From IMG/VR virus record IMGVR_UViG_3300032173_000008, positions 1 through 53,563 of that record: a stretch of 53,563 nt of DNA, one strand, 5' to 3'. This document shows positions 3,971-53,544 of the stretch, one piece after another. Each line of letters opens with the position of its first letter. The stretch's first letter is position 1. Under the pieces are notes generated by a model, which searched no databases, was not told where the DNA came from, and saw nothing but the letters and a program-made list of their open reading frames with translations. This DNA is from a virus (Duplodnaviria > Caudoviricetes). The position numbers and the translations under genes are program-made.

Positions 3971-4561
3971 TCATGCCCTCTTCACCCACTCGATCGGGGA
4001 CGCCCACACCACGGCGGCATCATTCATGACCGGATGGTTGTGGGAAACGAGACGCATCTTCCCGTTGTGCCGCTCTAGCCGCTTGACATAGACCTGCCCG
4101 GCAGCGAGCTCAACGACGCAGTCCTTTCCGATGCAGCTCTCAACGTCCCATCCGTCGTGCTGATGGATGTAGAGGAGATCTCCATTCCGGTAGACCGGCT
4201 CCATCGAAACGCCGCGGACACGCAACGCCACTACGTCAACAGCTCCTGGCGGGGCCGGCACGCGTTCGATGCCGACCCATGGTCCTTTTTCTGGGTCTGG
4301 GTAGTACAAGTCTCCTGCTCCTGCATATCCGATTAGATCAACAGTCGCCGGAATACTCGCTTTACCCAAATCTGTCGATAGATCTGTTGCCGGACATCCA
4401 AGGGCATCCGCTATTCTGGTCAGCCAGTCGACGGTGAGTCTGCGTTCACCATTCTCCAGACGCGAGACCTGCTGCTGGGTGGTGCCGATTTTCACGGCGA
4501 GCTGATCCGCAGTCAGGCCCTTCGCTTCACGCACTTCTCGAATCTTGTTCACACCAACCAT
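3971..4561 (-). CDS. cI: CI-like repressor (XRE HTH + S24 autopeptidase)
   Basis: IREVREAKGLTADQLAVKIGTTQQQVSRLENG; AG cleavage site; VRGVSMEP (Ser) and YVKRL (Lys). Confidence 0.9.
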   Translation of the reverse strand: MVGVNKIREVREAKGLTADQLAVKIGTTQQQVSRLENGERRLTVDWLTRIADALGCPATDLSTDLGKASIPATVDLIGYAGAGDLYYPDPEKGPWVGIERVPAPPGAVDVVALRVRGVSMEPVYRNGDLLYIHQHDGWDVESCIGKDCVVELAAGQVYVKRLERHNGKMRLVSHNHPVMNDAAVVWASPIEWVKRA

Positions 4562-4587
4562 TTTGCATGCCTCACGATCGCAGTCAC

Positions 4588-4637
4588 ACACCGAAACGGT
4601 ATTTATGTTTGACCAATACACCTGTTTGGTGTATTCG
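4588..4637 (+). promoter_or_regulatory. Rightward early promoter (PR-like) with two operators
   Basis: TTGACC(4609)-N17-TATTCG; ACACC-GAAAC-GGTAT (4588-4602) and AATACACC-TGTTT-GGTGTATT (4615-4635), same consensus as at PL. Confidence 0.85.
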
Positions 4638-4643
4638 AATGTC

Positions 4644-4850
4644 ATGCAGCTCCAAACTTGGTGTGAGAAGCACGGGGTCAGAGAGGCCAAGCTGAGAAAG
4701 CTTCTGCGCGTCTCGCAGCAATCGGCATCTCGCTACCTCCTCGGTCAGCGCATCCCTCGGAAGGACGTCATGCGCCGCATCCATTCGATCACGGACGGAG
4801 AAGTCACGGCGAACGACTTTTATCCCGCACCGCGCAAACGCGTCGCCTAA
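4644..4850 (+). CDS. cro: Cro-like HTH repressor
   Basis: Divergent from cI; VSQQSASRYLLGQRIP...ITDGEVTANDFY. Confidence 0.85.
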   Translation: MQLQTWCEKHGVREAKLRKLLRVSQQSASRYLLGQRIPRKDVMRRIHSITDGEVTANDFYPAPRKRVA

Positions 4851-4865
4851 CCACGGGGGTCTCAG

Positions 4866-5324
4866 ATGGCACCTCATGCCCGAAGTATCGCCGACGAGCC
4901 CTGCGCAACCCGCGTCAATTGTGAGGACGCACGTTGCGCGCAGGGGCAGCTCCCTCTGCGCTACAACGATCGCTACCTAGCTGGCGAGGCCACCGAAAAA
5001 CTTTACGACGCCGCCAGCGCGGTCGTCTCCAACGCCACGTTGAAGCAAGCCGCGTTCGACCTAGATCAGCCGGCCAGCACTCTGTGCAAAGCGCTCAAAC
5101 GTCAGGAACGTCACTACGGCCAACTGGACTGGCTCTTCTGGCTCGTGACGCACGACGGGTCGAACTGGATCGTCAAGCTCGTCTGCAGGTGGGCCGGTGG
5201 AGAGTTTTGCCAGAGCCACCAGATGTCAGACCGCGAGCGTGCCGACGCGCTCGAGCGTGCACTCGACAAGGTGGCCGGCGAGAAGCTGGCCTCAGTCGTG
5301 CGCCAAGAGGCGGGTCTCAAATGA
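4866..5324 (+). CDS. CII-like regulatory protein
   Basis: Position after cro; LKQAAFDLDQPASTLCKAL HTH-like segment. Confidence 0.5.
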   Translation: MAPHARSIADEPCATRVNCEDARCAQGQLPLRYNDRYLAGEATEKLYDAASAVVSNATLKQAAFDLDQPASTLCKALKRQERHYGQLDWLFWLVTHDGSNWIVKLVCRWAGGEFCQSHQMSDRERADALERALDKVAGEKLASVVRQEAGLK

Positions 5325-5509
5325 CGTTCGCCGACTGGCTTGAGCGCAGCCACCTGCCGGTGGGCCTTGTCGCCGATCGTCTCAAGGTCAGCGAGTTCGC
5401 CGTGCACTCGTGGCTCCTCGGCAAGGTGCCGGCCCGCAAGAACCAGATCAGCGTCGCGATCCTCACCCGCGGCATGGTCCGATGGGAAGATCGAGGCCGG
5501 GCGCCATGA
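5321..5509 (+). CDS. Second Cro-like HTH protein
   Basis: MTFADWL...VADRLKVSEFAVHSWLLGKVP...ILTRGMV. Confidence 0.65.
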   Translation: MTFADWLERSHLPVGLVADRLKVSEFAVHSWLLGKVPARKNQISVAILTRGMVRWEDRGRAP

Positions 5510-5728
5510 GACTCGGGATGTGGCACCTGGCGACGGCGCTCGGCGCACTGCTCCTCTTGCAGACATGCGAGGAGGTTCACGCGAGGGCTGTTCTCGAACG
5601 TGAGTCCGAGACAGCGCGCACGCTCGCTCACCGATGCGAGCTGCACCTGGTCGCGGCCCGGGCGCGGGTCACTGCATTCGAAGATCTGTTCGGCGCGGTC
5701 GGCGCCAAAATCACGAGAGGGACGGACG

Positions 5729-6019
5729 ATGTGCAAACCCTACAAGCGGGATCTCCGGGCGGAGTTGGCGGAGGAGAAGACTCGGTTCAACCAGCTGCTG
5801 CGCGAGAACGTGCAGCTGGTCGCTGACGCCAAGCGGAGGTCGGAGCTGCACGCGGAGATGATCGAGTCTCGCGACGTGAAGATCGCACAGCTCGAATCGA
5901 TGCTGCGCCCGTTGCTGTCGTCGTGCGGGTGCGACGTGGGCAAGCCGTGCGGGCGCTGCCTGGCGATTCGTCACGCGATGACGAAGAAGCCGACTGGGAA
6001 GAAAGTGCAGGCGGCGTGA
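5729..6019 (+). CDS. Hypothetical coiled-coil protein with Cys cluster
   Basis: CGCDVGKPCGRC; coupled to next gene. Confidence 0.5.
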   Translation: MCKPYKRDLRAELAEEKTRFNQLLRENVQLVADAKRRSELHAEMIESRDVKIAQLESMLRPLLSSCGCDVGKPCGRCLAIRHAMTKKPTGKKVQAA

Positions 6020-6582
6020 TGGAAGACGCACGGCCAAAGATCGACCGAGCAATCGAGATTCTCGCCGAGTGCAAAACGATCCCGGAAGTGAAGAAGATCA
6101 GGGACGAATATCTGGCACTGCAAACAGCGGCAGAAGAATCAAGAAAAAGCATCGCCGTCGTAAACGGCTTCGCGGAGATTGTAATCCGCGCCGAACGCAG
6201 ACTCGGGCAGCTAATCAAGCCACTGTTGGATGAGGAAGCAAAAAGAAAATCAGAATGGATGAAAGCCGCTCGGGAGAGCTTCGCCCCGGGAAAACCGCAG
6301 TCCTGCGCCTTTTGCCGACGATTCAGATCCATCGTCCACGCCCATCACATCTGGCCGCTGGTGCAACAATTCGACGATCATCACGGCATTGATGAGCCTG
6401 ACCACCGGTCCGTATGGCTTTGCCCGAACCACCACGCCCTCATCCACGCGTTCTTCAACCGAGCCGATGACGACGCCGACAGGGGGCATCGAAGTTTTGA
6501 GGCCCTGAACGATATCGACGACGAGCACGAGCGCACGGCGTTTATACGGTGGTGCCTCAATCTCGTGGGGGTGGAGTCATGA
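6019..6582 (+). CDS. HNH endonuclease-domain protein
   Basis: CAFC...HAHH...WLCPNHH. Confidence 0.7.
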   Translation: MEDARPKIDRAIEILAECKTIPEVKKIRDEYLALQTAAEESRKSIAVVNGFAEIVIRAERRLGQLIKPLLDEEAKRKSEWMKAARESFAPGKPQSCAFCRRFRSIVHAHHIWPLVQQFDDHHGIDEPDHRSVWLCPNHHALIHAFFNRADDDADRGHRSFEALNDIDDEHERTAFIRWCLNLVGVES

Positions 6583-7658
6583 GCGAAAAACGCTTTCACG
6601 CGGCCTCCCAGATCTTCCCAATGATGGACCCAGGCGAGATCGCAAATCTCGCCGATGACATCAAAAACAACGGACTGCGCGAGCCCATCGTGCTCGATAG
6701 CCAGAAAGGGCTCATCGTCGACGGACGTAACCGATTCCTCGCGTGCCGAATAGCTGGGGTCAAGCCGCAGTACGTTGTGTGGGACGGCCGAGGATCACTC
6801 CTGTCGTACGTGGTTTCTCTAAACCTGCACCGCAGGCATCTGGATGCGAGCCAGCGGGCGATGGTGGCAGCCAAGCTCGCCACGCTGTGCGACGGTCAGC
6901 GCCAGCTCGGCAAATTTGCCGAGGTGGCGACCCAGGCAGAAGCGTCGGAAATGCTCAACGTCGGCGAACGCACCATCAGACACGCCCGCGAAGTGACTGC
7001 CCACGGCGTCCCCGAGCTCGTCGCCGCTGTCGAGCGTGGTCGCGTGAGCGTGAGCGCCGCTGCCGACCTGGCAGACGATTCTGAGGAAGAGCAGCGAAGG
7101 GTGCTCGAGCTATCCGATGACGAGGTCCTGGCGAGAGCTAAAGAAATCCGCGCAAGCCATGCGCAGGACAACGGTCGCGGCGACGAGTGGCGCACTCCGC
7201 CCGATTACATCGATCGGGCCCGCCGCGTCATGGGATCCATCGACCTCGATCCGGCGTCGACCGCGCGAGCCAACGAGATCGTCAAGGCCAAGGCGTTCTT
7301 CGACAAAGGCATCGACGGGCGCACTCGCGAGTGGCGCGGGAATGTTTGGCTCAACCCACCGTTCAGCACGCCGTTGATCGGCGAGTTCGTCAGCATGCTG
7401 GTCGACGCGACCGAAGACAAGAAGGTTCCACAGGCAACCCTGCTGACCAATAACGCTACTGAGACGGGGTGGTTTCAGCAGGCGTTACGGGCGGCCGACT
7501 TTTGTTGCTTTCCTGACCAGCGCATCGCGTTCATCGGTGCCGACGGCCGGCCGGCGCCTGGGAATCGCCAAGCGCAGGCGTTCTTTTTCTTCGGATGCGA
7601 CCTCGCCCTCGTGCAGCGCGAGTTCGGACCTGTCGGGACGTTGGTCACGACGATCTAG
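6579..7658 (+). CDS. ParB-like domain fused to phage N6-adenine DNA methyltransferase
   Basis: IVDGRNRF (ParB/Srx); DEWRTP, IDLDPAS and WLNPPF. Confidence 0.85.
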   Translation: MSEKRFHAASQIFPMMDPGEIANLADDIKNNGLREPIVLDSQKGLIVDGRNRFLACRIAGVKPQYVVWDGRGSLLSYVVSLNLHRRHLDASQRAMVAAKLATLCDGQRQLGKFAEVATQAEASEMLNVGERTIRHAREVTAHGVPELVAAVERGRVSVSAAADLADDSEEEQRRVLELSDDEVLARAKEIRASHAQDNGRGDEWRTPPDYIDRARRVMGSIDLDPASTARANEIVKAKAFFDKGIDGRTREWRGNVWLNPPFSTPLIGEFVSMLVDATEDKKVPQATLLTNNATETGWFQQALRAADFCCFPDQRIAFIGADGRPAPGNRQAQAFFFFGCDLALVQREFGPVGTLVTTI

Positions 7659-14825: not shown

Positions 14826-16516
14826 TGGCACAGATTCTTGACTATCGCGGACAGCCCGTAGAGATGAAGACACTCGCGGAGGAACTCGCGGCGCCGTCCA
14901 TGGCCGGCGTGCGCACGCCATGGTGGCCAGCGGTCTACAACCTGACCCCGGATCGACTCGGTCAGATCCTTGCGGCCGTGGATAGCAACGACATCAACGA
15001 GTACCTGACGCTCGCCGAGCAGATGGAGGAGAGCGACCTCCACTACCACTCGGTGTTGAGCACGCGCAAACTTGCCGTGGGCAGCCTGGCGCTCACTATC
15101 GAGTCAGTCACCGACGACAAGCGCGACGAAGAGATTGCCGACTTTGTCGGTGAGGTTATGCGGGACGACGCGGCCCCTGGCCTGCTGTCTGATCTACTTG
15201 ACGCGGTGGGCAAGGGATTCTCCGTCTGCGAGATCATGTGGGATCGATCTGGGAGCCAGTGGGTGCCGAGCGCCTATGAGTGGCGCGACCCGCGGTTCTT
15301 CATGTTCGACCGCGACACCGGCAGGGAGCTGCGCCTGCGCGACGAGAAGGACCTCGCGGTGGGCGTCCCGCTCGCTCCGTACAAGTTTGTCCAGCACAGG
15401 CCGAAGATTAAGACGGGCGTGCCAATCCGCGGCGGCCTCGCGCGGCTCGCGGCCATCGCCTACATGTGCAAGAACTACTCGCTCAAAGATTGGCTCGCGT
15501 TTGCCGAGGTCTTCGGCATGCCGATCCGCGTGGGCAAGTACGACTCAGGCGCGACCGACGACCAGAAGCGCGAGCTGCTGCGCGCGGTCAGCAACATCGG
15601 TACCGACGCCGCGTGCATCATCCCGAAGTCGATGCTCATCGACTTCATCAGCGCGTCGACGTCGACCGGCGGCGACAAGCTATTCATGGGCCTCGCCGAT
15701 TGGCTCGACGCCCAGGTGTCGAAGGGCGTACTCGGCCAGACGATGACGGCCGACGCCCACGCCTCCGGCATCGGCTCCGGTCAGGCGCAGGTGCACAACG
15801 AGGTCAGGCAAGACATCCGCGACGACGACGCGAACAAGTTGGCAGCGACGATCAAGCGCGACGTTGTGCGTCCGCTCGTAGACCTCAACTTTGGACCTCC
15901 GGCGAGTGGGCATTACCCGCGTGTGCGCCTCGTGCTCGAGACCGCGGACGACCTCGAATCGTTGTCAAAGTCTCTCCCGCCGTTCATCGAGCAGGGCTTG
16001 CGCGTCGAAGAGTCCGTCATCCGCGACAAGTTCAATTTACCTGCACCAGCTCCGGACGCCATGCTGCTACACCCAAGGGCGTCCTCGGCGCCGGCGCCGG
16101 TCACCCCAGCAGAGCCGGGCGTCGCTGCACCACCGACTACGCCGGCAGCGACCGCACGTCGCATCCAGGAACTGACCGCCATCGAGCTCCTGGCGCGCGT
16201 CAGGCACGGCGAGACATTGACCCCAGACCAGCGTGGGCTGCTCGCGGCGTACGTGGCGACCTGCCAGTCACATGGCACTCAGGACGAAGACGAGATCGAT
16301 CGCCTGACGAATGAGGCGTTGAGGGGGTGGCGGCAAGTGGCAGATCCGGTGCTCGCGCCAATCATCCAGGCGGCCGAACAAGCCGGCAGTGCAGACGACT
16401 TCGTGGCCGAGCTCGGCCGCATCGCCGGCACCACCAATCTGGACGAGCTGGCGCAGCAGTTGGCGACGAGGACTTTTGAGTCGAGAGCACTCGGCGATGT
16501 GAAGGACAAGCCATGA
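14825..16516 (+). CDS. Mu gp29-like portal protein (DUF935)
   Basis: WLAFAEVFGMPIRVGKY, VSKGVLGQT and VHNEVRQDI. Confidence 0.9.
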   Translation: MAQILDYRGQPVEMKTLAEELAAPSMAGVRTPWWPAVYNLTPDRLGQILAAVDSNDINEYLTLAEQMEESDLHYHSVLSTRKLAVGSLALTIESVTDDKRDEEIADFVGEVMRDDAAPGLLSDLLDAVGKGFSVCEIMWDRSGSQWVPSAYEWRDPRFFMFDRDTGRELRLRDEKDLAVGVPLAPYKFVQHRPKIKTGVPIRGGLARLAAIAYMCKNYSLKDWLAFAEVFGMPIRVGKYDSGATDDQKRELLRAVSNIGTDAACIIPKSMLIDFISASTSTGGDKLFMGLADWLDAQVSKGVLGQTMTADAHASGIGSGQAQVHNEVRQDIRDDDANKLAATIKRDVVRPLVDLNFGPPASGHYPRVRLVLETADDLESLSKSLPPFIEQGLRVEESVIRDKFNLPAPAPDAMLLHPRASSAPAPVTPAEPGVAAPPTTPAATARRIQELTAIELLARVRHGETLTPDQRGLLAAYVATCQSHGTQDEDEIDRLTNEALRGWRQVADPVLAPIIQAAEQAGSADDFVAELGRIAGTTNLDELAQQLATRTFESRALGDVKDKP

Positions 16517-17070
16517 CAATGATTGAACGGTTCTGGTCGAAAGTGAAGAAGTCGCCAGGGTGTTGGATGTGGGATGGGTCTCCATCAAAGAGATACGGAT
16601 ACTTCCGCACCAACAGAACTCGGGTAGCTGCTCACCGCTTTTCGTGGGAGATTCACAACGGAGAAATACCGCCAGGACTGTGCGTCCTTCACCGGTGTGA
16701 TGTCGCCAAATGCGTGCGCCCTGACCACCTGTTTCTCGGCTCTCAACTAGAAAACATCGCCGACAGAGATCGCAAAGGGAGAACGGCGCGCGGCGAAAAG
16801 CTTGGCCACAATCGCGGTGACCGCAACGGGACGCATACGATGCCGGAGCGTGTTGCACGCGGAGATAGAAATTGGGCCAAGGCACATCCTGAGTTAATGC
16901 CGCGCGGAGAGCAGGTTAAAACGGCCAAGCTCACACGGGAGAGGGTTGCGGAAATTTTGTCGTCTTCCATGCGCCAAGACGATATCGCGCGAAAGTTTGG
17001 TGTCAGTCAGTCGCTGATTTCGGCGGTCCGCTTGCGTCAGATTTGGAAACACGTGGAGGTGCACTCATGA
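16513..17070 (+). CDS. HNH homing endonuclease
   Basis: RFWSKV, CWMW, VLHRCD..CVRPDHL; C-terminal HTH. Confidence 0.9.
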   Translation: MTMIERFWSKVKKSPGCWMWDGSPSKRYGYFRTNRTRVAAHRFSWEIHNGEIPPGLCVLHRCDVAKCVRPDHLFLGSQLENIADRDRKGRTARGEKLGHNRGDRNGTHTMPERVARGDRNWAKAHPELMPRGEQVKTAKLTRERVAEILSSSMRQDDIARKFGVSQSLISAVRLRQIWKHVEVHS

Positions 17071-43102: not shown

Positions 43103-43693
43103 ATGGCCAAAACGCTGATTGCTCCGACATCGATGGCTGACCTCAAGCCGGCCCCATATAACCCGCGCAAGATTTCACCCAAGGCCGCCAGCGCACTGCA
43201 GCGGTCACTCGGGGAGTTCGGTGACTTGTCGGGCATCACCTGGAATTCGCGTACCGGACACGTCGTGGCCGGTCACCAGCGTCTCGCCGAGCTGCGCAAG
43301 ATGGGGGCCAACCTCGTCGACGGTTGCGTTGTCGCCACAGGCGAGCGCTATCAGGTCCGGGTTGTCGACTGGCCAGAAGGCAAAGAGAAGGCGGCCAACG
43401 TCGTTGCCAACAGCCCCTCGATCGCGGGCGAGTTCACCGATGGACTGCAAGACGTCCTCGTCGACGTCGGCGCCGAACTCGACCACGAGCTATTCGCTGA
43501 CCTGTTACTGTCCGACCTGGAGGAAGAGGAGCGCGAAGGGGCGACCGAGTTGAAAGAGTGGGACGCTTCAGATGTGTCGGCTGACGGTCTCTTCATTTTC
43601 CACGCGCCTATTGAGTTGCAAGGCAAGGTCCGCGCGGTGCTCGAGCGCGAGTTCCCTGGCGTGAGCTTTGATGAGGAGATCGTTTTTGGGTGA
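43103..43693 (+). CDS. ParB/Srx-like domain protein
   Basis: LKPAPYNPRKI and VAGHQRL. Confidence 0.8.
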   Translation: MAKTLIAPTSMADLKPAPYNPRKISPKAASALQRSLGEFGDLSGITWNSRTGHVVAGHQRLAELRKMGANLVDGCVVATGERYQVRVVDWPEGKEKAANVVANSPSIAGEFTDGLQDVLVDVGAELDHELFADLLLSDLEEEEREGATELKEWDASDVSADGLFIFHAPIELQGKVRAVLEREFPGVSFDEEIVFG

Positions 43694-44283: not shown

Positions 44284-44526
44284 CTAGATCTTCACGGACG
44301 TCTCAATAGTAGTAGATTCCGAACGCGGCAATAGAGATTCCGAACGCCCGTAGACGGGTTTGTGTGCCGACACAATGCAATGCCGCACACAGTCGTCGTG
44401 CAGAGTCGCCAGGCCGATTCCGTATTTTTTCGCAGTGGCGCGAATGCTGGCGCCGGCGCGGATTTCGTCGAGCGCCTGCGGCGGGATTGTTCGGCGAGGT
44501 CTGCCGCCCTGGTGCCTACCCCGCAT
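44284..44526 (-). CDS. Small HTH protein
   Basis: GGRP...GASIRATAKKYGIGLATL. Confidence 0.6.
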   Translation of the reverse strand: MRGRHQGGRPRRTIPPQALDEIRAGASIRATAKKYGIGLATLHDDCVRHCIVSAHKPVYGRSESLLPRSESTTIETSVKI

Positions 44527-44677
44527 TGGCGCACCGTTTGCGCACGATTCCGCTCACGGTCGTGGCCTTTAGGTCGTAGTCCAGAGCCAGTTCCCGTTGC
44601 GGAACTCCGGCCAGATACCGGCGGCGGATTTCAGCGTTGCGGTCTACTATCGATGGGCGGTGCATGCCATCCAGCAT
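44516..44677 (-). CDS. Small Mor-like HTH protein
   Basis: RNAEIRRRYLAGVPQRELALDYDLKATTVSGIV. Confidence 0.6.
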   Translation of the reverse strand: MLDGMHRPSIVDRNAEIRRRYLAGVPQRELALDYDLKATTVSGIVRKRCANAG

Positions 44678-44733
44678 AGCCTCGGCTCGCCGACGCATCG
44701 CGGTTGATTTGGGGCGGGTGGTGCAGGGGCCGA

Positions 44734-44997
44734 TCATGGTGTCGGACCTCGGCCGGCAAGAATGGCATCCAATATTATCGCGCGTTGCTCCGCGGCCGCC
44801 CCCGCCACTGTAGGATCGTCCATGTACGCGCGCCACGCCTTCGCTGCGGCCCTGATGGCGCGCAGCTCGGCAAGCTCTTTCGCCTGCGCCTCGATGATGT
44901 CGAGGGCAGACCTCAGGGCATCAGCGCCGAGGCTGTTATCCTGTTGGCGTGTGTATTTTGCGCGGCACTCGGCCACAAAATTCGTCACGTCATCCAT
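44734..44997 (-). CDS. Hypothetical protein
   Basis: AAGGAG RBS; MDDVTNFVAEC. Confidence 0.5.
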   Translation of the reverse strand: MDDVTNFVAECRAKYTRQQDNSLGADALRSALDIIEAQAKELAELRAIRAAAKAWRAYMDDPTVAGAAAEQRAIILDAILAGRGPTP

Positions 44998-45277
44998 GGC
45001 GGTCTCCTTTCGTCGCGAGGCGGGCGATGGCGGCGCGGAGTTGGTCAACTGTTGCGCGCAAATCTTCGCTGGCCTGGGTGGCTTCTGGCGTCCTCATTTT
45101 TCCGTCTCCTTTTTGGCGGCACGAATCTCGCGGGCGCAGTGGAGGGCGGCATCATAGCGCGCCTCGCTCCAGTCCTGAGCGGCGGATATGCAAATCGTCG
45201 CCGCGGCTTCGAGCGCGGCGTTGCGGTCGACGAGTTGCGCCACAACTGGACCTGGCGGCGGCAACACGGGCTCGTCA

Positions 45278-46519
45278 TCATCCCGCATCGACCCTATCGC
45301 AGCAGATTGCGGGTGCAAGGATGTCGTCGTTAAGTCGTTTCGACTCGCGCTCGATCGCAGCCGATCGCTGCTCGGCCCAATGCCGCGGGGCGGCGCGAAC
45401 CTCGCGCTCGCATCGCTCGATGACCTCGGCCGGTATCTCGGTTATCCCGAGGCGCTCCATCTGTTGCCGTTTATCGCGCAGCCGCGCCACTTCTTCGAGA
45501 GCGCAGCCGTGGATGGCCTCGGGAGTCATCGGCTTCAACATCCCGCGGTTCATCTCGCGCCACACGCGGTCCATCCACAGCCAATGCGGCACCGTGTGAT
45601 GCTGACACCCGCAGTCGTTGAGAATCAGTAGCTCGTGGACAACCGCGTGGTGGTTGCTCTTCATCGGGACGGGCACCACGCGGAATCCGTGGAGCTTCGC
45701 AAGATCCCGGACCTCAGGGGCATCGTCATAGGTGAGCATGACGGATCCGCGCACGGCGGCCATCGTGGAGAAGAGGCGGTCGTGATCGACCTCGTTGTGT
45801 CGGTAGAGCCGAGTGCCAGCGCTCTTCCCTCCTGCTGTGTATGGCGGGTCCACGAAATAGAAGGCGTGCGCATCCTTGGCGAACCGCTTGATCACATCGA
45901 AGGCGTCACCGTGCTCGAAGGTGATGCGATCCCGAAGCGTCCTTAGCTCCTTGATTCGTTCGACGATGGTTGCGGGATACCACCGTGAGGATAGCCCCCG
46001 CCCCGCCTCACCGTCCTTCATCAAGCCAGCGCCAGCCGACATGATTCCACCGCGCTGCATCCGGTTCTTGACGATAGTTCGGAAGGCTTGGTGTCGGACG
46101 CTCGCGCAGGTGCCGTCAAGTATCTGTCTCACGTTTGCCAGCGTGACATCGAAACCACGGATGCGCTCGCACAGCCATCGGGCGTCGGACTCGCTCCCCT
46201 GAAAAATCAATGACCAGACGGCGGCCACGTCGTCATCCAGTTCACAAAGGTAGACTTCCCGCGCAAGGCGTTCGTGCGCGACGGATAGCCCGGCCATCGC
46301 CCCGCCAGCAAACGGCTCGACAAACACCGATGCAGCATGACTTGAAGCGGTCAGCCACTTTCGCACCTCTGGTACGAGCCAGGTCTTTCCTCCCGGATAC
46401 CGGAAGGGGCTTAGGTGTCGAATCTCCGCAATGTTAGTCGGGGCCTCCTTGCTCTTGATCTGGTAGATGATCGCAGCAATGGGATCGCCTCGGACCCGCT
46501 GAAAGGCAAGCTGTGTCAC
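45278..46519 (-). CDS. D12-class (Dam-like) adenine methyltransferase with unrelated C-terminal extension
   Basis: SPFRYPGGKT, FVEPFAGG, FVDPPY and LTYD. Confidence 0.85.
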   Translation of the reverse strand: MTQLAFQRVRGDPIAAIIYQIKSKEAPTNIAEIRHLSPFRYPGGKTWLVPEVRKWLTASSHAASVFVEPFAGGAMAGLSVAHERLAREVYLCELDDDVAAVWSLIFQGSESDARWLCERIRGFDVTLANVRQILDGTCASVRHQAFRTIVKNRMQRGGIMSAGAGLMKDGEAGRGLSSRWYPATIVERIKELRTLRDRITFEHGDAFDVIKRFAKDAHAFYFVDPPYTAGGKSAGTRLYRHNEVDHDRLFSTMAAVRGSVMLTYDDAPEVRDLAKLHGFRVVPVPMKSNHHAVVHELLILNDCGCQHHTVPHWLWMDRVWREMNRGMLKPMTPEAIHGCALEEVARLRDKRQQMERLGITEIPAEVIERCEREVRAAPRHWAEQRSAAIERESKRLNDDILAPAICCDRVDAG

Positions 46520-46686
46520 GCCTCCCTCGCCTTCTTCTGCTTCTTCGTGCGCTTCTTTCCCTCCACGCTGAGCGTCATGCTTCCCTCCGGTCTGTGTCTG
46601 TTCCTTTTTGCCTTCACTGAGTCAAGGCGCGGGTTGAAGGGGGACTCGGCGATCTGCTCGAGCGGAAGACTGGTTGTTGCTGCCAT
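46516..46686 (-). pseudogene. Truncated ParB-like N-terminal remnant
   Basis: LPLEQIAESPFNPR followed by unrelated sequence. Confidence 0.45.
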
Positions 46687-46744
46687 GCTGACTGCTCTCC
46701 TTGCCCGTCCGAGGACGGCGCCGTTTGTGTTGATTCGGTGATGT

Positions 46745-47125
46745 TCATGCCGCCCCGCGGCGGGCTCGCCACGCGCGGACGTGAGCGCGCTGGGCCCCAC
46801 GGCACTCGTCGCACCGGCACCCGATCTCGTACATGGTCCGCGTCCCATGCCTGCGCGCCGCAATCCATTCGTATCGTGTCTTCTTTTTGTGACAGTCGAC
46901 GCAAAGCAGCTGGCACTTCGCGATTTCTTCCGTCCGACGTGCCGCGCTCCATGTCCAAATGCGATGGCTCACCTTCATCCTGCGGTCGATATGGTCGAGC
47001 TCAAGTTTTTCGATTGATCCACAGCCCACGCATGCACCGCCCATTGCCGCGTACGCCTCGCGTTTGCGCTGCTGAATCCAGCGGAGGTTGTAGATTCGCC
47101 GCGCCTGCCTATCGAGGATTGGCAT
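46745..47125 (-). CDS. HNH endonuclease
   Basis: CVGCG..LELDHID...CQLLCVDCH; HGT..Y..GCRCDEC. Confidence 0.85.
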   Translation of the reverse strand: MPILDRQARRIYNLRWIQQRKREAYAAMGGACVGCGSIEKLELDHIDRRMKVSHRIWTWSAARRTEEIAKCQLLCVDCHKKKTRYEWIAARRHGTRTMYEIGCRCDECRGAQRAHVRAWRARRGAA

Positions 47126-47316
47126 TGTACCGACCTTCTGTGCCGACCACGGATGAAAAATCCGTGACCATGCGTGCTGAATGTTGCCAGGAAAAACTGT
47201 GACGTGTGAGGGGAGACGCGGCCGGAACAGGCTTGTAAGGCCAGTGCTCTACCCCTGAGCTATCCGCCTGCCATGCGGGTTTGCTCACCCGCTGTACCGA
47301 CCCTACTGTACCGGCT
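47126..47316. other. Candidate attP with arm-type repeats
   Basis: TGTACCGACC (47126, 47293), TGTGCCGACC (47139) and TGTACCGGCT (47307) flank a tRNA fragment next to the integrase stop. Confidence 0.7.
47230..47269 (-). tRNA. 5' half of tRNA-Val(TAC) (fragment, att core)
   Basis: AGGCGGA TA GCTC AGGGGTA GAGC A CTGGC CTTACAA GCC; no T-arm (GTTCRA) or 3' acceptor strand follows. Confidence 0.8.
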
Positions 47317-48364
47317 TCGACCCTGTTTTCTGCATCGCGATCCAGTCGGACACAGCGGTCCCGGCCGCAATCGTTCGCTGGGCATCGGCGTGCAGGTAGA
47401 GACCAGTCGTCGCGACGTTGGCATGTCCGCCAAGCCGCTGCGCTGCAATCGGGTCCCCTGAAAGTCTCGCCGCATGAGTGAGATAGAAATGCCGCAAATC
47501 GCGCGGCGTGACAACCCCCAAGATCTTGGCCTTGGAACTGGCCCACGCGAGCGACTTGTTCGGCTTTAGGCGCCGGAACGGGGCGCGGCGCGCAATGATC
47601 CCATCGGCCTCGGCGCAGAGCGGAATCTCGCGAGGGTGACCCCACTTCGCACCCTCGGCAGGAACCTGCAGGATTGCCTGGCCGCCGATCGACTTGACGA
47701 CCCACGACGGTTGCAGCCGGTGCAATTCCTCGATGCGAAGTCCGGTCAGCATAATCAGACGGCACCGGTCGCGATGCCCAGCGCTCACGGCTTTGGGATG
47801 CATCCTGGACAACACAAGATCGATCTGTGCGAGGTCCCAGAGCTTGCCCTGTTGGCTCCTGTTGGGGGCGTCGCTTCGGATCTTTGGAATGTCGTCGGGG
47901 TCGAACGGGAGAGCGAAAATCGCCCGGTCCCGCTTGGCGATCCGAAGTCCTCGAACAAAGGCCTGCACCTCGCGTCTGATCGTCTGCCCCTTGACGCCCT
48001 CCCCTCGCCTCTTTCCTATGTACTGGTGCACGATCCCCACCGTTGACGACATCACATCGAAGCGCTCGCCGAGGATGCGGATCAGCGGCGCCCATAGCCA
48101 TTCTATCGTCTGGACACGTACTCTGCCCAGTCCGTCCGCCTCCGCTCGCGCAATGTCCATGGCTTCGAGGGTGCATAGGTCTACGCCTCGTCGCCGTCCA
48201 GGTGGACCTTCTCGTGATTCGACTTCAACGCGGATCGCGCGCGCTCTTTTCTCCGCTGTTCGGCGATCTCTCTCACCCGTGGTGAAACGGTACTCGGTGC
48301 CGCAATGCTGAAATTTGGTCCACCAGATAGAGCCGCGACGGAAGAGCATGAGCCGGCCTCGCAC
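47303..48364 (-). CDS. int: Tyrosine integrase
   Basis: Arm-binding-like N-terminus; TGLRIEEL, PRDLRH and GGHANVATTGLY. Confidence 0.92.
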   Translation of the reverse strand: MRGRLMLFRRGSIWWTKFQHCGTEYRFTTGERDRRTAEKRARAIRVEVESREGPPGRRRGVDLCTLEAMDIARAEADGLGRVRVQTIEWLWAPLIRILGERFDVMSSTVGIVHQYIGKRRGEGVKGQTIRREVQAFVRGLRIAKRDRAIFALPFDPDDIPKIRSDAPNRSQQGKLWDLAQIDLVLSRMHPKAVSAGHRDRCRLIMLTGLRIEELHRLQPSWVVKSIGGQAILQVPAEGAKWGHPREIPLCAEADGIIARRAPFRRLKPNKSLAWASSKAKILGVVTPRDLRHFYLTHAARLSGDPIAAQRLGGHANVATTGLYLHADAQRTIAAGTAVSDWIAMQKTGSKPVQ

Positions 48365-48549
48365 GCATCAAGGTATTCGTCGAGAGCGCAGGGGCGATAT
48401 CGCACAACGCTCCCGATCACGCAAACTGCTGGCCCGCGGCCTTCGCGAGCCAGTCTGCGCAATAGTGACGAGCTCACTCCCAAGTAGTGCGCCGCGTCGT
48501 CAACCGACATCGTTGCCGGTTCGATTTTGCGTGCTGCATCGGCGCTCAT
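48181..48549 (-). CDS. xis: Excisionase-like HTH protein
   Basis: MSVDDAAHYLGVSSSLLRRLAREGRGP...VRY; overlaps int start. Confidence 0.75.
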   Translation of the reverse strand: MSADAARKIEPATMSVDDAAHYLGVSSSLLRRLAREGRGPAVCVIGSVVRYRPCALDEYLDACEAGSCSSVAALSGGPNFSIAAPSTVSPRVREIAEQRRKERARSALKSNHEKVHLDGDEA

Positions 48550-48848
48550 AGTTTTGGCGGCTCCCTCCACGGCAACTCCGGCGCGGTCATCCTCGCGTGC
48601 GCCGGGCAGAAGTCGCGGTTATGGCCGACGTGCTTGGCGCACCTCCGGCAGATGGGCTTGTCGCAGGTCTTGCCATTTTTCTCGCCGTGCAGCGGGTAGT
48701 CGCAGAGCAGATCGGACGGACGCCCGCATCCGACACAGGGCTTACTCGCCTGACGGCCACGAGAGCATACCCAGCCGACGGCGTGACCGCTGCTGTCGGT
48801 GATGACTCGGCACGGGCTCATACGCACATCTCCTTGGCTCCAGTCCAT
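48546..48848 (-). CDS. Cys-rich hypothetical protein
   Basis: LLCDYP..TCDKPICRRC...DFCPAH. Confidence 0.6.
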   Translation of the reverse strand: MDWSQGDVRMSPCRVITDSSGHAVGWVCSRGRQASKPCVGCGRPSDLLCDYPLHGEKNGKTCDKPICRRCAKHVGHNRDFCPAHARMTAPELPWREPPKL

Positions 48849-50805: not shown

Positions 50806-51569
50806 GCGGCCTTTCCTTTTTTCTGCGCATCGACGGCGCGGCGCATCTGGCCAACGACTCGCTCGATGTTTGCCAGGTCTCGGTCGAGCGTGACGAGCCC
50901 GCCGGACACCAGATCGCCAAGATCGCGGCGGAACGCATCGACGGCCCAATGGTCGTCGGGATTGATTCCGCGCGCCGTCAGCTCAGAGCGGAGCGACTCA
51001 TACGATGCGACCTTCGTCTCGGCCGCAGAGACTCTTGTTGACGCGCCCAGGACCATCTCGCGAATACGCCGCGAGACTCTGCGGCCGAGGTCCGCGCGGT
51101 CGTTTTTATCCTCGAGCCATCGCCACCAATATTCGCGGTCGCCCGACGTCTCCTCAACGCGCTCCCTGGTGATCTTTGTACGACACATCAACACGTAGAC
51201 GAGCAGCGCGGCGGGCAACTCGATCTCGCGTCTCGCTGCCTTGCGCTTGGTATGCAGACGCTCACCCTCGCCCGACCAGAGCAGGCCTACGCCCTCGCCG
51301 AGTTCCTCCGGCTGAATGAGGCCGCGCGGGCAGACGAAATAGAGCTGGTGGCACAGCGGCAGATACGCCGGCCATTTGTCGTCGCGCAGGAAGTCCGACC
51401 GCGACTCTTTGATTTCGTACCCGATCATCGTGATCGGAGACCAACTTCGTCGCATTGCCCACGCATCGAGGCGGTGGTGCGATCCGGACTGCGTCGGCCC
51501 GTCCTTGCATTCGGAGACGAAGACGTCGGCGGCGTGCTTGGAGCGGAGCTTTTCGAGGATGTCGGTCAT
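50802..51569 (-). CDS. MmcB-like PD-(D/E)XK nuclease
   Basis: RLDAW, GYEIKESRSDFLRDDKW and LYFVCP. Confidence 0.75.
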   Translation of the reverse strand: MTDILEKLRSKHAADVFVSECKDGPTQSGSHHRLDAWAMRRSWSPITMIGYEIKESRSDFLRDDKWPAYLPLCHQLYFVCPRGLIQPEELGEGVGLLWSGEGERLHTKRKAARREIELPAALLVYVLMCRTKITRERVEETSGDREYWWRWLEDKNDRADLGRRVSRRIREMVLGASTRVSAAETKVASYESLRSELTARGINPDDHWAVDAFRRDLGDLVSGGLVTLDRDLANIERVVGQMRRAVDAQKKGKAA

Positions 51570-51871
51570 GTTCTGGCCCTCGTCTCCGCATGATGCTCTC
51601 GGTCGTAGCGCAAATGACAGCGCTGACAGAGCGCCCGCAGGTTCGACGGGCTGCAGTGCTCCGGCATGTGGTCAAGGTGCGCGACTGTCAGCACGATTTT
51701 ACCTCTCGCCCACGTCGCAGGCGTGCGGTTGCGCTCCTCGCATCGCCGGCCGTGGTGCAGGCCGCACTCGCCGGTGCACTCGCAGCGGTCGCCGGCCCGT
51801 CCTCGAATTGACCGCGAGATAGCCGGCCAGTTGTGCGGGTAGCGGGACTTGTTTTCGGGGCTGATTGGCAC
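51566..51871 (-). CDS. HNH-like protein
   Basis: VLTVAHLDH..NLRALCQRCHLRYD. Confidence 0.75.
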   Translation of the reverse strand: MPISPENKSRYPHNWPAISRSIRGRAGDRCECTGECGLHHGRRCEERNRTPATWARGKIVLTVAHLDHMPEHCSPSNLRALCQRCHLRYDREHHAETRART

Positions 51872-51875
51872 GACG

Positions 51876-53177
51876 TCACCCCTCCGCGCCCGGCTCGCGC
51901 ATCGGCAACGCGGCCTGTACACGCGCCGGCTTGGCGTCTGAGACTACATGCCCGTCCTCGATTACGACCGTGCACTCGTCGCCCTTGCCTACGCGTTCGA
52001 CCCACACCTGCGCCTCGGCCAAGGACGCCATCTCCGCGACCATCGCGAGGCTCTGCTCGTCGAGCAGCGACCCGTCTCGCACGAGCAACACCTTGAGCTT
52101 CGGGTGCATCGCGAGGCCGATCGCCACGCTCGCGCGCAATTGCTCGGCGCTCGATGCCTGGGCCAGCGGGAGTCCGGCGAGCGTGACGCCCGACTCGTCG
52201 AAGGCGAGGCCGTCGATCGGCATCTTGCAGGCCTCGAGCTTCTCGCGCTTGTGGTCCTCGGCCGCAGAAATCTCGTCGGTCAGCGCGTCCGACTTCGCAG
52301 TCTGCTCGGCCAGTTCGGCGGCGAGCTTCCTCCGCTCGATGGCATGGCGCGCCGCCGCGTTGATGTTCTGCACATCCTCGATCTGTTTGAGCACTTCGGC
52401 CTCATTCGCCTCAGACGTCGCGGCGAGTTCGGCAGACAGAGATCTACCAGTCGCCGTGACATGATCGAGTTCATGTCGCACCATCTCTAGATCGCTCTCG
52501 AATTTTGCGATCTTCTCCTTGTAAGACACCGCCGACTTGCGCAGTTGCTCAAGCCCGCTCGCCATCGTCGCTCTCTTGGCGTTGTGCTGTCGCCTCGTCG
52601 ACAGCTCGGCGGACAGGTCATGGATCGATACCTCGGCCGTCGGGGCGCCTTCGACCGAAGGTGGCAGCTTCGCGAGCGCGCCCTCGATGCGTTTGGCCTC
52701 GCGGTTGATGTCCGTGCGTTTATCGTACGCGGCTTGGCGCTTCGCCTCGATCGCGGATAGGTCGAGCCCGACGAGTTCGCGCACCGTCTCGGCCTGGGCC
52801 TTGGGGTCCATGCGAGAAAATGCGAGCGGGTCGAACGACAGCTTGCCGACGAGCCCGTCGAGCATCTTCTGTGGCGATCCGTATTTCGCTCCGTCCTTGT
52901 TGGTCACGGCGAGGGTACCCCCGCCGGCAGGCGTGAACGTGCGCTTGATGACCGTGCCGTCGTCGAGCGTCACGCAGACCTCGCCCTTGCTCGCACCGCG
53001 GCGCAGAGGCTCGGCCGGAACGAGGTCTTTTCCTCCTAGAGCCATGGCGATCGAGTCCAGCAGCGACGTTTTTCCCTGACCGTTGCGACCGCCCACGACG
53101 ACGAGCGATCCGTCGGGTTTCACACTCACGGCGACCAGACGCTTGACGTTCTCGGCTCTCAATTCGGTGATGTGCAT
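51876..53177 (-). CDS. SMC/Rad50-like ATPase with coiled coil
   Basis: GRNGQGKTS Walker A, long coiled coil, SSAEQ signature, LLVRDGSLLD. Confidence 0.85.
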   Translation of the reverse strand: MHITELRAENVKRLVAVSVKPDGSLVVVGGRNGQGKTSLLDSIAMALGGKDLVPAEPLRRGASKGEVCVTLDDGTVIKRTFTPAGGGTLAVTNKDGAKYGSPQKMLDGLVGKLSFDPLAFSRMDPKAQAETVRELVGLDLSAIEAKRQAAYDKRTDINREAKRIEGALAKLPPSVEGAPTAEVSIHDLSAELSTRRQHNAKRATMASGLEQLRKSAVSYKEKIAKFESDLEMVRHELDHVTATGRSLSAELAATSEANEAEVLKQIEDVQNINAAARHAIERRKLAAELAEQTAKSDALTDEISAAEDHKREKLEACKMPIDGLAFDESGVTLAGLPLAQASSAEQLRASVAIGLAMHPKLKVLLVRDGSLLDEQSLAMVAEMASLAEAQVWVERVGKGDECTVVIEDGHVVSDAKPARVQAALPMREPGAEG

Positions 53178-53544
53178 TTAGAACCCCGCTTCTTTCGTGT
53201 TCATGAGTGCCGAGCGCTCTCGCATCACTTCCTCGGCGGTCATCTGTTTTGGTGAGGCTGGCTCCTCGGGCTTCGTTGTCTCCACGATCTCGCCAGTCTT
53301 GGGGTCGTACGTCTCGGTCTCGGCCGGCGACGCGGCCTTCTTGCCGAACGTGCTGCGCCCCTCGGGCGGACGGCTCGGCTCTTGCTCGGTCACGTCGAGA
53401 GGTTCGGCTGCGATGTGCACGAAGTCTCCAGCCTCTTCGCTCGAGATGATCCCGCGCAGCTTGTCCGGGAAGGCGTCACGCAGGGCGAACCCGCGGGCGC
53501 GCTGCTGCAGCATGCGCTTCGGGTACTGCGACCACGGTCCTTGT
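53178..53544 (-). CDS. RecT-like protein, 3' part (continuation of 575..1)
   Basis: RMLQQRARGFALRDAFPDKLRG followed by a disordered tail. Confidence 0.75.
53419..53544. repeat. Terminal direct repeat / circular overlap (copy 2)
   Basis: Identical to 1-126. Confidence 0.95.

Follow-up and report, generated by a model that had tools for sequence, protein, structure and literature searches.

In phage lambda, xis and int close a long early operon in which exonuclease- and RecT-type genes are also found; attP follows int directly, and the core of the site does not fall in a tRNA gene. Integrative elements that have their tRNA target in the reversed orientation were reportedly described by Zhao and Williams in 2002. 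Table 1 of the Islander paper counts 159 islands with a 5′ tRNA fragment among 3919, the remaining 3760 having a 3′ fragment, and the same paper gives 2083 anticodon-centred sites; the sublocation class names used here are those found in it. Krupovic et al. (2019), in the statement that concerns us, called recombination with the 5′ part ‘considerably less frequent’ and cited Zhao & Williams 2002 along with archaeal cases, and PMC9897764 held nothing on polarity. In the tRNA-dependent lysogeny of actinobacteriophages (Guerrero-Bustamante & Hatfull 2024, PMC10865867), the core is about 10 bp long, no tRNA is rebuilt at the site, and a whole tRNA gene comes with the phage.

Here we describe a locus of the rarer kind, positions 47126–47316 of an IMG/VR record of 53,563 bp; ‘the window’ denotes this whole stretch of DNA. 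We hold with good confidence that the locus is the attP of a temperate, contractile-tailed phage, that its core is the front 40 nt of tRNA-Val(TAC), and that strand exchange takes place in the anticodon loop. A first-pass annotation made from the letters of the sequence had taken carriage of the 3′ part to be the rule for tyrosine integrases that target tRNA genes, and the Islander counts agree; because the opposite polarity had already been described, the novelty of the locus was overrated there. The reversed arrangement is rare but already catalogued, and the window adds to it a new and uncultured phage lineage.

Results

The phage genome is closed and the site lies within it

The record is labelled linear and ~83% complete in IMG/VR. 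Positions 53419–53544 are an exact copy of the window’s first 126 nt, ending 19 nt before the window end, and a RecT-type gene on the minus strand leaves the left end and picks up again at the right end; thus, the assembly closes on itself. Since the window is circularly closed and phage genes lie on both sides of int, the site is in its attP form and is not a prophage junction.

The plus strand carries replication, terminase, portal, protease and major head genes, together with sheath, tube, tape measure, baseplate and lysis genes. The minus strand is a lambda-like early operon that includes a CI-like repressor (3971–4690), an exonuclease, the RecT-type gene, an SbcC-like gene, an HNH gene and small ORFs, and it runs on to att in the order HTH_17 excisionase-like ORF, integrase, att, second HNH gene, an ORF, and D12 methylase. 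The best large terminase matches in the public phage collection, to Aeromonas, Paracoccus and Rhizobium phages, reached at most 39%, so no host was called from them.

Two gene groups of the window are recorded in their own right. There are three HNH endonuclease genes of different PHROG families (16513–17070, 46745–47125, 51566–51922), one placed directly after the portal gene and one being the first gene past attP. Two proteins have ParB-like domains (6549–7658 and 43103–43693); one of them is fused to a DNA methyltransferase domain, which together with the D12 enzyme (45278–46519) gives the phage at least two methylases.

Integrase and excisionase-like gene

The integrase P0001 scored 35.9 bits against Pfam Phage_integrase (PF00589), for which the cut-off is 27.1, and is thereby a tyrosine recombinase; it also matched the PHROG 1 integrases (E = 2.6e-21). 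The consensus start of its family is an ATG five codons inside the listed start. A profile of 48 integrase homologues matched XerC-like, XerD, Tn-type Int and HP1 Int structures, with E values from 1e-11 to 7.5e-4 for the XerC-like, XerD and HP1 Int matches. Residues R210, R288, R291, H314 and Y323 were invariant in the 48 homologues, and K240 was nearly so. The predicted catalytic set R, K, HxxR, H/W and Y is therefore conserved, R288 being the first HxxR position, with roles assigned by reading the motifs and not from a structure. The excisionase-like ORF lies directly upstream of int and overlaps its start; its own true end is uncertain.

The attP core is the 5′ part of a tRNA

The tRNA-like stretch begins 33 nt after the int stop, on the same strand as int. 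Its 40 nt spell the acceptor 5′ strand, U8–A9, the D-arm, the 5′ strand of the anticodon stem (CTGGC), the loop CTTACAA with the anticodon TAC, and GCC; the fit ends 3 nt past the anticodon loop, where the next bases, TG, break the stem. Rfam’s tRNA model gave the core 27.3 bits, below the gathering score of 29, with E values of 0.004 in a 1.5-kb search and 3.4e-5 over the whole record, and ARAGORN found no complete tRNA in the whole window. An independent fragment in a relative, L045, differed from the core at 2 of 40 nt. The tRNA signal is more than chance.

As a separate observation, the first tRNA base (47269) is A in the window and G in the fragments of L045, L044 and L002. The rebuilt tRNA might consequently have a mismatch at pair 1–72, unless the host has A1–U72.

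In the window, L044 and L045 the identity with tRNA extended 3 nt beyond the loop, and in L002 it extended 5–6 nt; in relatives with the classical layout the tRNA block starts just before the anticodon loop. These block ends point to the anticodon loop as the likely 7-nt crossover region. In the terms of the Islander classes the block fits class A (anticodon loop), as its end lies at the anticodon stem-loop. With tRNA positions 1–41 on the int strand downstream of int, it is also of the 5′-fragment kind, as are the corresponding blocks of four relatives.

Two pairs of direct repeats flank the core. The copies are TGTACCGACC at 47126 and 47293, TGTGCCGACC at 47139, and TGTACCGGC at 47307. Their shared word, TGTRCCGRC, has 8 matches in the window where 2.8 were expected, a count reached in 1 of 100 shuffles; 4 of the 8 sit in these 190 nt, all on one strand. 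A homologous P-arm pair occupies the same place in L051, L045, L044 and L047, and a homologous P′-arm pair lies downstream of the core in L051, L045 and L052. All four copies were found in L051 and three each in L045 and L052. Because the relatives have the same two-plus-two layout, we predict that the repeats are arm-type sites. The region would then be an attP of the lambda type, with putative Int-binding arms on both sides of the core that are conserved among relatives.

Two hairpins lie in the region (Table 1). The one at 47145–47169 pairs better as minus-strand RNA, with two G·U pairs, and was not called in the terminator scan; the fold of 47110–47330 as a whole was no better than that of shuffled sequences (z = −0.33).

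On these points the first-pass annotation stands. It had described 40 nt of tRNA-Val(TAC) 33 bp past the int stop and on the int strand, and its coordinates hold, the Rfam model, the L045 fragment and a contig from the probable source sample (see below) being in agreement. The break within the anticodon stem falls where it had been placed, at GCC followed by unpaired TG. The four copies of the two flanking repeat pairs were all located, and the closed genome with phage genes on either side bears out its reading of the region as attP.

Table 1. Features in and around the predicted attP, in window coordinates
Feature	Positions	Strand	Basis or remark
Excisionase-like HTH ORF	48181–48570	−	Pfam HTH_17 E = 4.4e-9, 36.9 bits vs cut-off 27, residues 21–69
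Tyrosine integrase (P0001, 353 aa as listed)	47303–48364	−	Stop TAG at 47305–47303
P-arm, two direct repeats, predicted arm-type sites	47307–47315, 47293–47302	−	Overlap last int codons and stop
Small hairpin, 6-bp stem, 6-nt loop	47275–47292	−	Between int stop and tRNA start; in MFE fold; no U-tract
Core, 5′ part of tRNA-Val(TAC), standard positions 1–41	47269→47230 (40 nt)	−	Rfam, relatives, sample contig
Anticodon loop CTTACAA, putative 7-nt crossover (overlap) region	47233–47239	−	Suggested by block ends
Hairpin, 10–11 bp, 5-nt loop	47145–47169	−	Between core and P′ arm; MFE and centroid folds; no U-tract
P′-arm, two direct repeats, predicted arm-type sites	47139–47148, 47126–47135	−	End at HNH start codon
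HNH endonuclease, first gene past attP, tRNA strand	46745–47125	−	PHROG 4234 E = 2e-41; Pfam HNH E = 6e-4, just under cut-off
D12-class N6-adenine DNA methyltransferase	45278–46519	−	MethyltransfD12 40.4 bits vs cut-off 22; PHROG 56 E = 9e-32

Core polarity differs within one integrase family

Metagenome protein sets yielded 97 integrase homologues, the best at 61% identity. The species-representative genomes held no integrase relative, whether queried with the single protein or then with the 48-sequence alignment, and the public phage collection gave no match to int. Viral contigs gave no match to the single integrase protein; the alignment found 42 loci there, of which only L002 (45%) is in the family. 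The other viral-contig loci matched the conserved C-terminal part only, at 23–44%, and were set aside. The tRNA stretch searched as a DNA pattern of 39 or 23 nt had 0 matches in viral contigs. A search there with the HNH protein gave one 17-residue match, which was also set aside.

We examined the DNA context of the family at ten loci, L002 from IMG/VR and L044–L052 from metagenomes, or 11 with the window. Four of the 11 give no polarity: L048 and L050 break off within int, L049 stops 39 nt past the int stop codon, and L046 has a fusion of int with a methylase. Of the seven informative loci, five have the tRNA 5′ part on the int strand, 0–33 nt after the int stop or overlapping it; apart from the window, whose Val-TAC part begins 33 nt after the stop, these are L045, L044, L002 and L047, with integrases 45–62% identical to that of the window. 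L045 (62%) has a Val-TAC part with the int stop inside it, at tRNA positions 8–10. The parts of L044 (61%, Arg-TCT) and L002 (45%, Arg-CCG) follow the int stop by 9 and 13 nt. In L047 (48%) the int stop lies inside 21 nt of a tRNA start, with an acceptor as in L044, after which the contig ends. The two remaining informative loci, L051 (37%) and L052 (36%), are classical: just downstream of int they carry the reverse complement of the 3′ part of tRNA-Val(TAC), CCA included.

In L051 the acceptor 3′ strand is complementary to positions 2–7 of the window’s tRNA part and to all 7 of L045’s. From start to start, the repeats of the window are 13, 154 and 14 nt apart and those of L051 14, 161 and 13 nt; the repeat words on the int strand are nearly the same, GTCGGCACAC in L051 as against GGTCGGCACA and GGTCGGTACA in the window. 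By manual count, 57 and 88 nt separate the anticodon loop of the window from the nearer repeats, as against 51 and 99 nt in L051. The repeats point the same way relative to int in both loci, whereas the core is inverted. The two phages thus appear to aim at the same kind of tRNA-Val gene by way of the same attP scaffold, with their cores set in opposite directions. The anticodon stem-loop is nearly palindromic (GGC-C-TT-A-CA-A-GCC), so a flip of the core is easy to imagine.

Reversed polarity is, as judged from these loci, common to every informative member of the window’s integrase clade. A quick maximum-likelihood tree was made of 65 rows, namely P0001, 46 of the 97 homologues from alignment A1, 10 hand-picked distant homologues and 8 locus translations; P0003, a duplicate of L044, and the other 40 homologues were left out. 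Its deepest split (SH-aLRT 100 on both sides, midpoint root) parted 54 rows with all five reversed loci from 11 rows with both classical loci. The quick tree, with orientation for 7 tips only, is consistent with one flip in one clade and does not prove it.

Three further observations were made on the int genes of relatives. In L046 a 591-aa ORF (302–2077) passes in one frame from int to the DPPY part of a DNA methylase, immediately behind the catalytic tyrosine motif; the locus lacks the piece that holds attP in its relatives and may be a deletion derivative or an assembly chimera. In L045 (~783–792) and L047 (~1524–1533) the int stop TAG is formed by tRNA positions 8–10 of the attP 5′ part, so that in a lysogen of this type an RNase P cut at the rebuilt tRNA would take the stop codon off the int mRNA. 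In L051 a 417-aa int frame (5010–6263) crosses the P-arm repeats, the P′ repeats and the tRNA 3′ part between them without meeting a stop; integration would change the integrase tail, if this frame is really used.

A candidate host site and the predicted integrated form

We examined one public sequencing run (X1), probably from the source sample, as contigs. At 47259, within the tRNA stretch, the phage contig (depth 13) comes to an end, and no contig was placed on 47316–48000. Another contig, of 145 nt and depth 6.7, equals 47230–47259 at 30 of 30 nt; beyond this it has a variable loop, a T-arm and an acceptor 3′ strand, the last of which pairs with the phage-borne positions 2–7. Therefore, a matching tRNA-Val(TAC) gene exists in the sample. 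The 145-nt contig could be attB or a junction, and the contigs do not separate the two. Contigs with 2–3 differences are other tRNA-Val genes. No joint was listed among the contigs of this run, which says nothing for or against integration. A comparison of the 40-mer with tRNA genes had been suggested in the first-pass annotation as a way to the host; the match in this run is the contig with a tRNA 3′ half.

An integrated relative or an attL or attR was absent from the species-representative genomes, viral contigs and metagenome loci examined, so that the search for related prophages, proposed in the same place, came back empty for the species-representative genomes. ARAGORN found 0 whole tRNAs in 8 family loci. 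All five reversed loci are in attP form, and integration is accordingly deduced for all of them and observed for none.

In the integration that we propose, Int would bridge the arm sites and the anticodon stem, and the 7-nt anticodon loop would be the place where the phage exchanges strands with the host gene for tRNA-Val(TAC). The rebuilt tRNA would consist of phage positions 1 to ~35 and the host remainder and would lie just downstream of int. The host promoter, still joined to the displaced 5′ part, would be directed at the P′ arm and at the HNH and methylase genes. Because the core, with respect to int and the arms, is turned round from the classical layout, the phage would replace the 5′ part of the tRNA gene and the region upstream of it. 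This predicted prophage geometry follows from the sequence. The first-pass annotation had arrived at the same geometry, and five of the seven informative loci share the polarity behind it. It had also held that related prophages with a 3′-end duplication would speak against it; two distant relatives (36–37%) do carry the 3′ part, and four nearer ones, at 45–62%, carry the 5′ part.

Transcription around attP

Scans ahead of the tRNA part in the window, L045, L044 and L002 revealed no consensus sigma-70 promoter. The rebuilt tRNA would thus need read-through from xis–int or a promoter that a simple scan does not see. For L045 and L047, in which the int stop is internal to the tRNA part, transcripts of int must extend into the tRNA. 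On the other side, a scan of 46600–47230 found no canonical terminator between the core and the HNH gene, and consensus promoters before the HNH or methylase gene were also absent; the 47145–47169 hairpin, which has no U-tract, could stop transcription before HNH.

As an observation apart, the only consensus promoter-like site in 46600–48600 lies at 48129–48100 on the minus strand (TGGGCA, 18-nt spacer, TAGAAT, 9/12). It sits inside the 5′ part of int and points towards attP; shuffled sequences give 0.3 such sites, so it may be there by chance.

Discussion

The switch proposed for integration

If the predicted geometry is correct, integration might act as an expression switch, the host tRNA promoter driving HNH, the methylase and the small ORFs while tRNA-Val came only from phage-controlled transcription. 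The D12 methylase would then face the host tRNA promoter in a lysogen. We regard this reading as possible but rather doubtful. The attP layout yields the required geometry, the scans of 46600–47230 revealed neither a canonical terminator nor a consensus promoter that would isolate the genes beyond the core, and the int stops inside the tRNA part of L045 and L047 agree with tRNA transcription from the phage side. Unrelated methylases lie downstream of attP and co-oriented with the tRNA part in the window (D12 N6-adenine) and L002 (C-5 cytosine), and in L046 int runs into a methylase tail of DPPY type; the downstream ORFs that were tested in the two classical loci included no methylase. However, the tally amounts to just 2 of 3 reversed against 0 of 2 classical loci, L045 has no recognisable co-oriented gene after attP, and methylases beside int and att are common cargo of temperate phages. 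A hairpin of 10–11 bp stands between the core and HNH, and L045 and L044 have terminator-like hairpins after the core, although at about the chance rate.

The first-pass annotation had proposed such a switch and had listed an HNH gene, a Dam-like methylase and HTH regulators at 44284–47125 as the genes under the host promoter. The HNH and methylase genes were confirmed, the latter as a D12 enzyme; the HTH regulators (44284–45281) were not, there being sub-threshold HTH hints for 44284–44526 only. A terminator or a promoter isolating either side had been named there as evidence to the contrary; neither a consensus promoter nor a canonical terminator turned up, but the 10–11 bp hairpin before HNH did. 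Its further suggestion that the host could come to depend on prophage transcription does not follow, because after precise excision the gene would be whole again, and hosts may have further copies of it.

A broader proposal is that the core turned round within one integrase family while int, the four arms and their spacing stayed fixed, that sisters enter the same tRNA-Val(TAC) gene in opposite directions, and that the reversed clade uses the captured tRNA promoter for cargo past attP, notably methylases (D12 in the window, C-5 in L002, DPPY in L046). Taken as a whole this is unlikely, in our judgement, to be correct. If true, integration itself would switch on host DNA methylation.

Alternative explanations of the tRNA part

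It is very unlikely that the tRNA stretch is a dead relic, for instance of aberrant excision, with the working crossover elsewhere. Such a relic would account for the A at position 1, unlike the fragments of relatives, and for an Rfam score under the gathering score, and no junction has been observed. Against it, four relatives carry the same kind of fragment in the same place between paired repeats, with three tRNA species represented, and the block ends at the same tRNA position in three loci. Fragments that keep their place while the tRNA differs do not behave as relics, since a relic would not be replaced in step with changes of target.

We give very little credence to the idea that the half-tRNA acts mainly as RNA, at the 3′ end of the int mRNA or in its stability, and not as a recombination core. 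The part does share the strand of int and begins right behind the int stop or overlaps it, with hairpins on both sides. Yet the region folds no better than shuffled sequences, a half-tRNA is without the acceptor–T domain that RNase P recognises, and the classical relatives have the complementary strand of the 3′ half in the same slot, which fits a DNA site and not an RNA element.

It is hardly credible, in spite of the IMG/VR label (linear, ~83% complete), that the window represents a prophage in its integrated state, or two elements in tandem, and that the fragment is the junction of another element. The ends overlap exactly over 126 nt with the RecT gene across them, a host-like flank and a complete tRNA are lacking, and the displaced fragment behind a classical element is a 3′ fragment.

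We return to the reading of the locus as an attP whose core is the front of tRNA-Val(TAC). Reversed polarity parts a tRNA gene from its own promoter and aims that promoter into the element, and reversed tRNA integration is among the few att layouts in which integration alone must rewire transcription on both sides. The family offers a natural comparison that could test what fixes the direction of integration. A possible use lies in the design of integrases that would place cargo, in the direction wanted, downstream of a strong promoter of the host.

Comparison with known systems

With tRNA-dependent lysogeny (PMC10865867) the window shares a tyrosine integrase at a tRNA gene and a tRNA supply tied to phage DNA. 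Unlike the phages described there, it has a block of 40 nt, the tRNA is expected to be rebuilt, and the number of tRNA genes in the window is 0; it does not belong to that class.

The arrangement of the window also resembles the int–attP region of lambda (sib retroregulation), with xis–int at the end of the early operon, attP directly 3′ of int on the same strand, and more genes beyond. Because attP is directly downstream of int, integration changes what lies 3′ of int. For an RNase III site of the sib kind, the 47145–47169 hairpin of the window is a candidate only.

The likeness to classical anticodon-loop attP sites (Williams 2002 classes; HP1-type) extends to the anticodon stem as the inverted core sites, arm repeats on both sides, and an int gene that adjoins attP. 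The window differs from them in the direction of its core, which is reversed with respect to int and the arms, and in that the 5′ part is carried.

The closest match is with elements of reversed orientation and the 5′-fragment islands of Islander, with which the window shares carriage of the tRNA 5′ part, predicted replacement of the front of the gene and the region upstream, an anticodon-loop centre, and a tyrosine integrase. Those islands were mapped in place, whereas the window shows a tailed phage of a sediment metagenome with its attP free. What is new and most useful, as read from the aligned loci, is the existence of sister layouts that appear to share their arms and their tRNA-Val target and to differ in the direction of the core.
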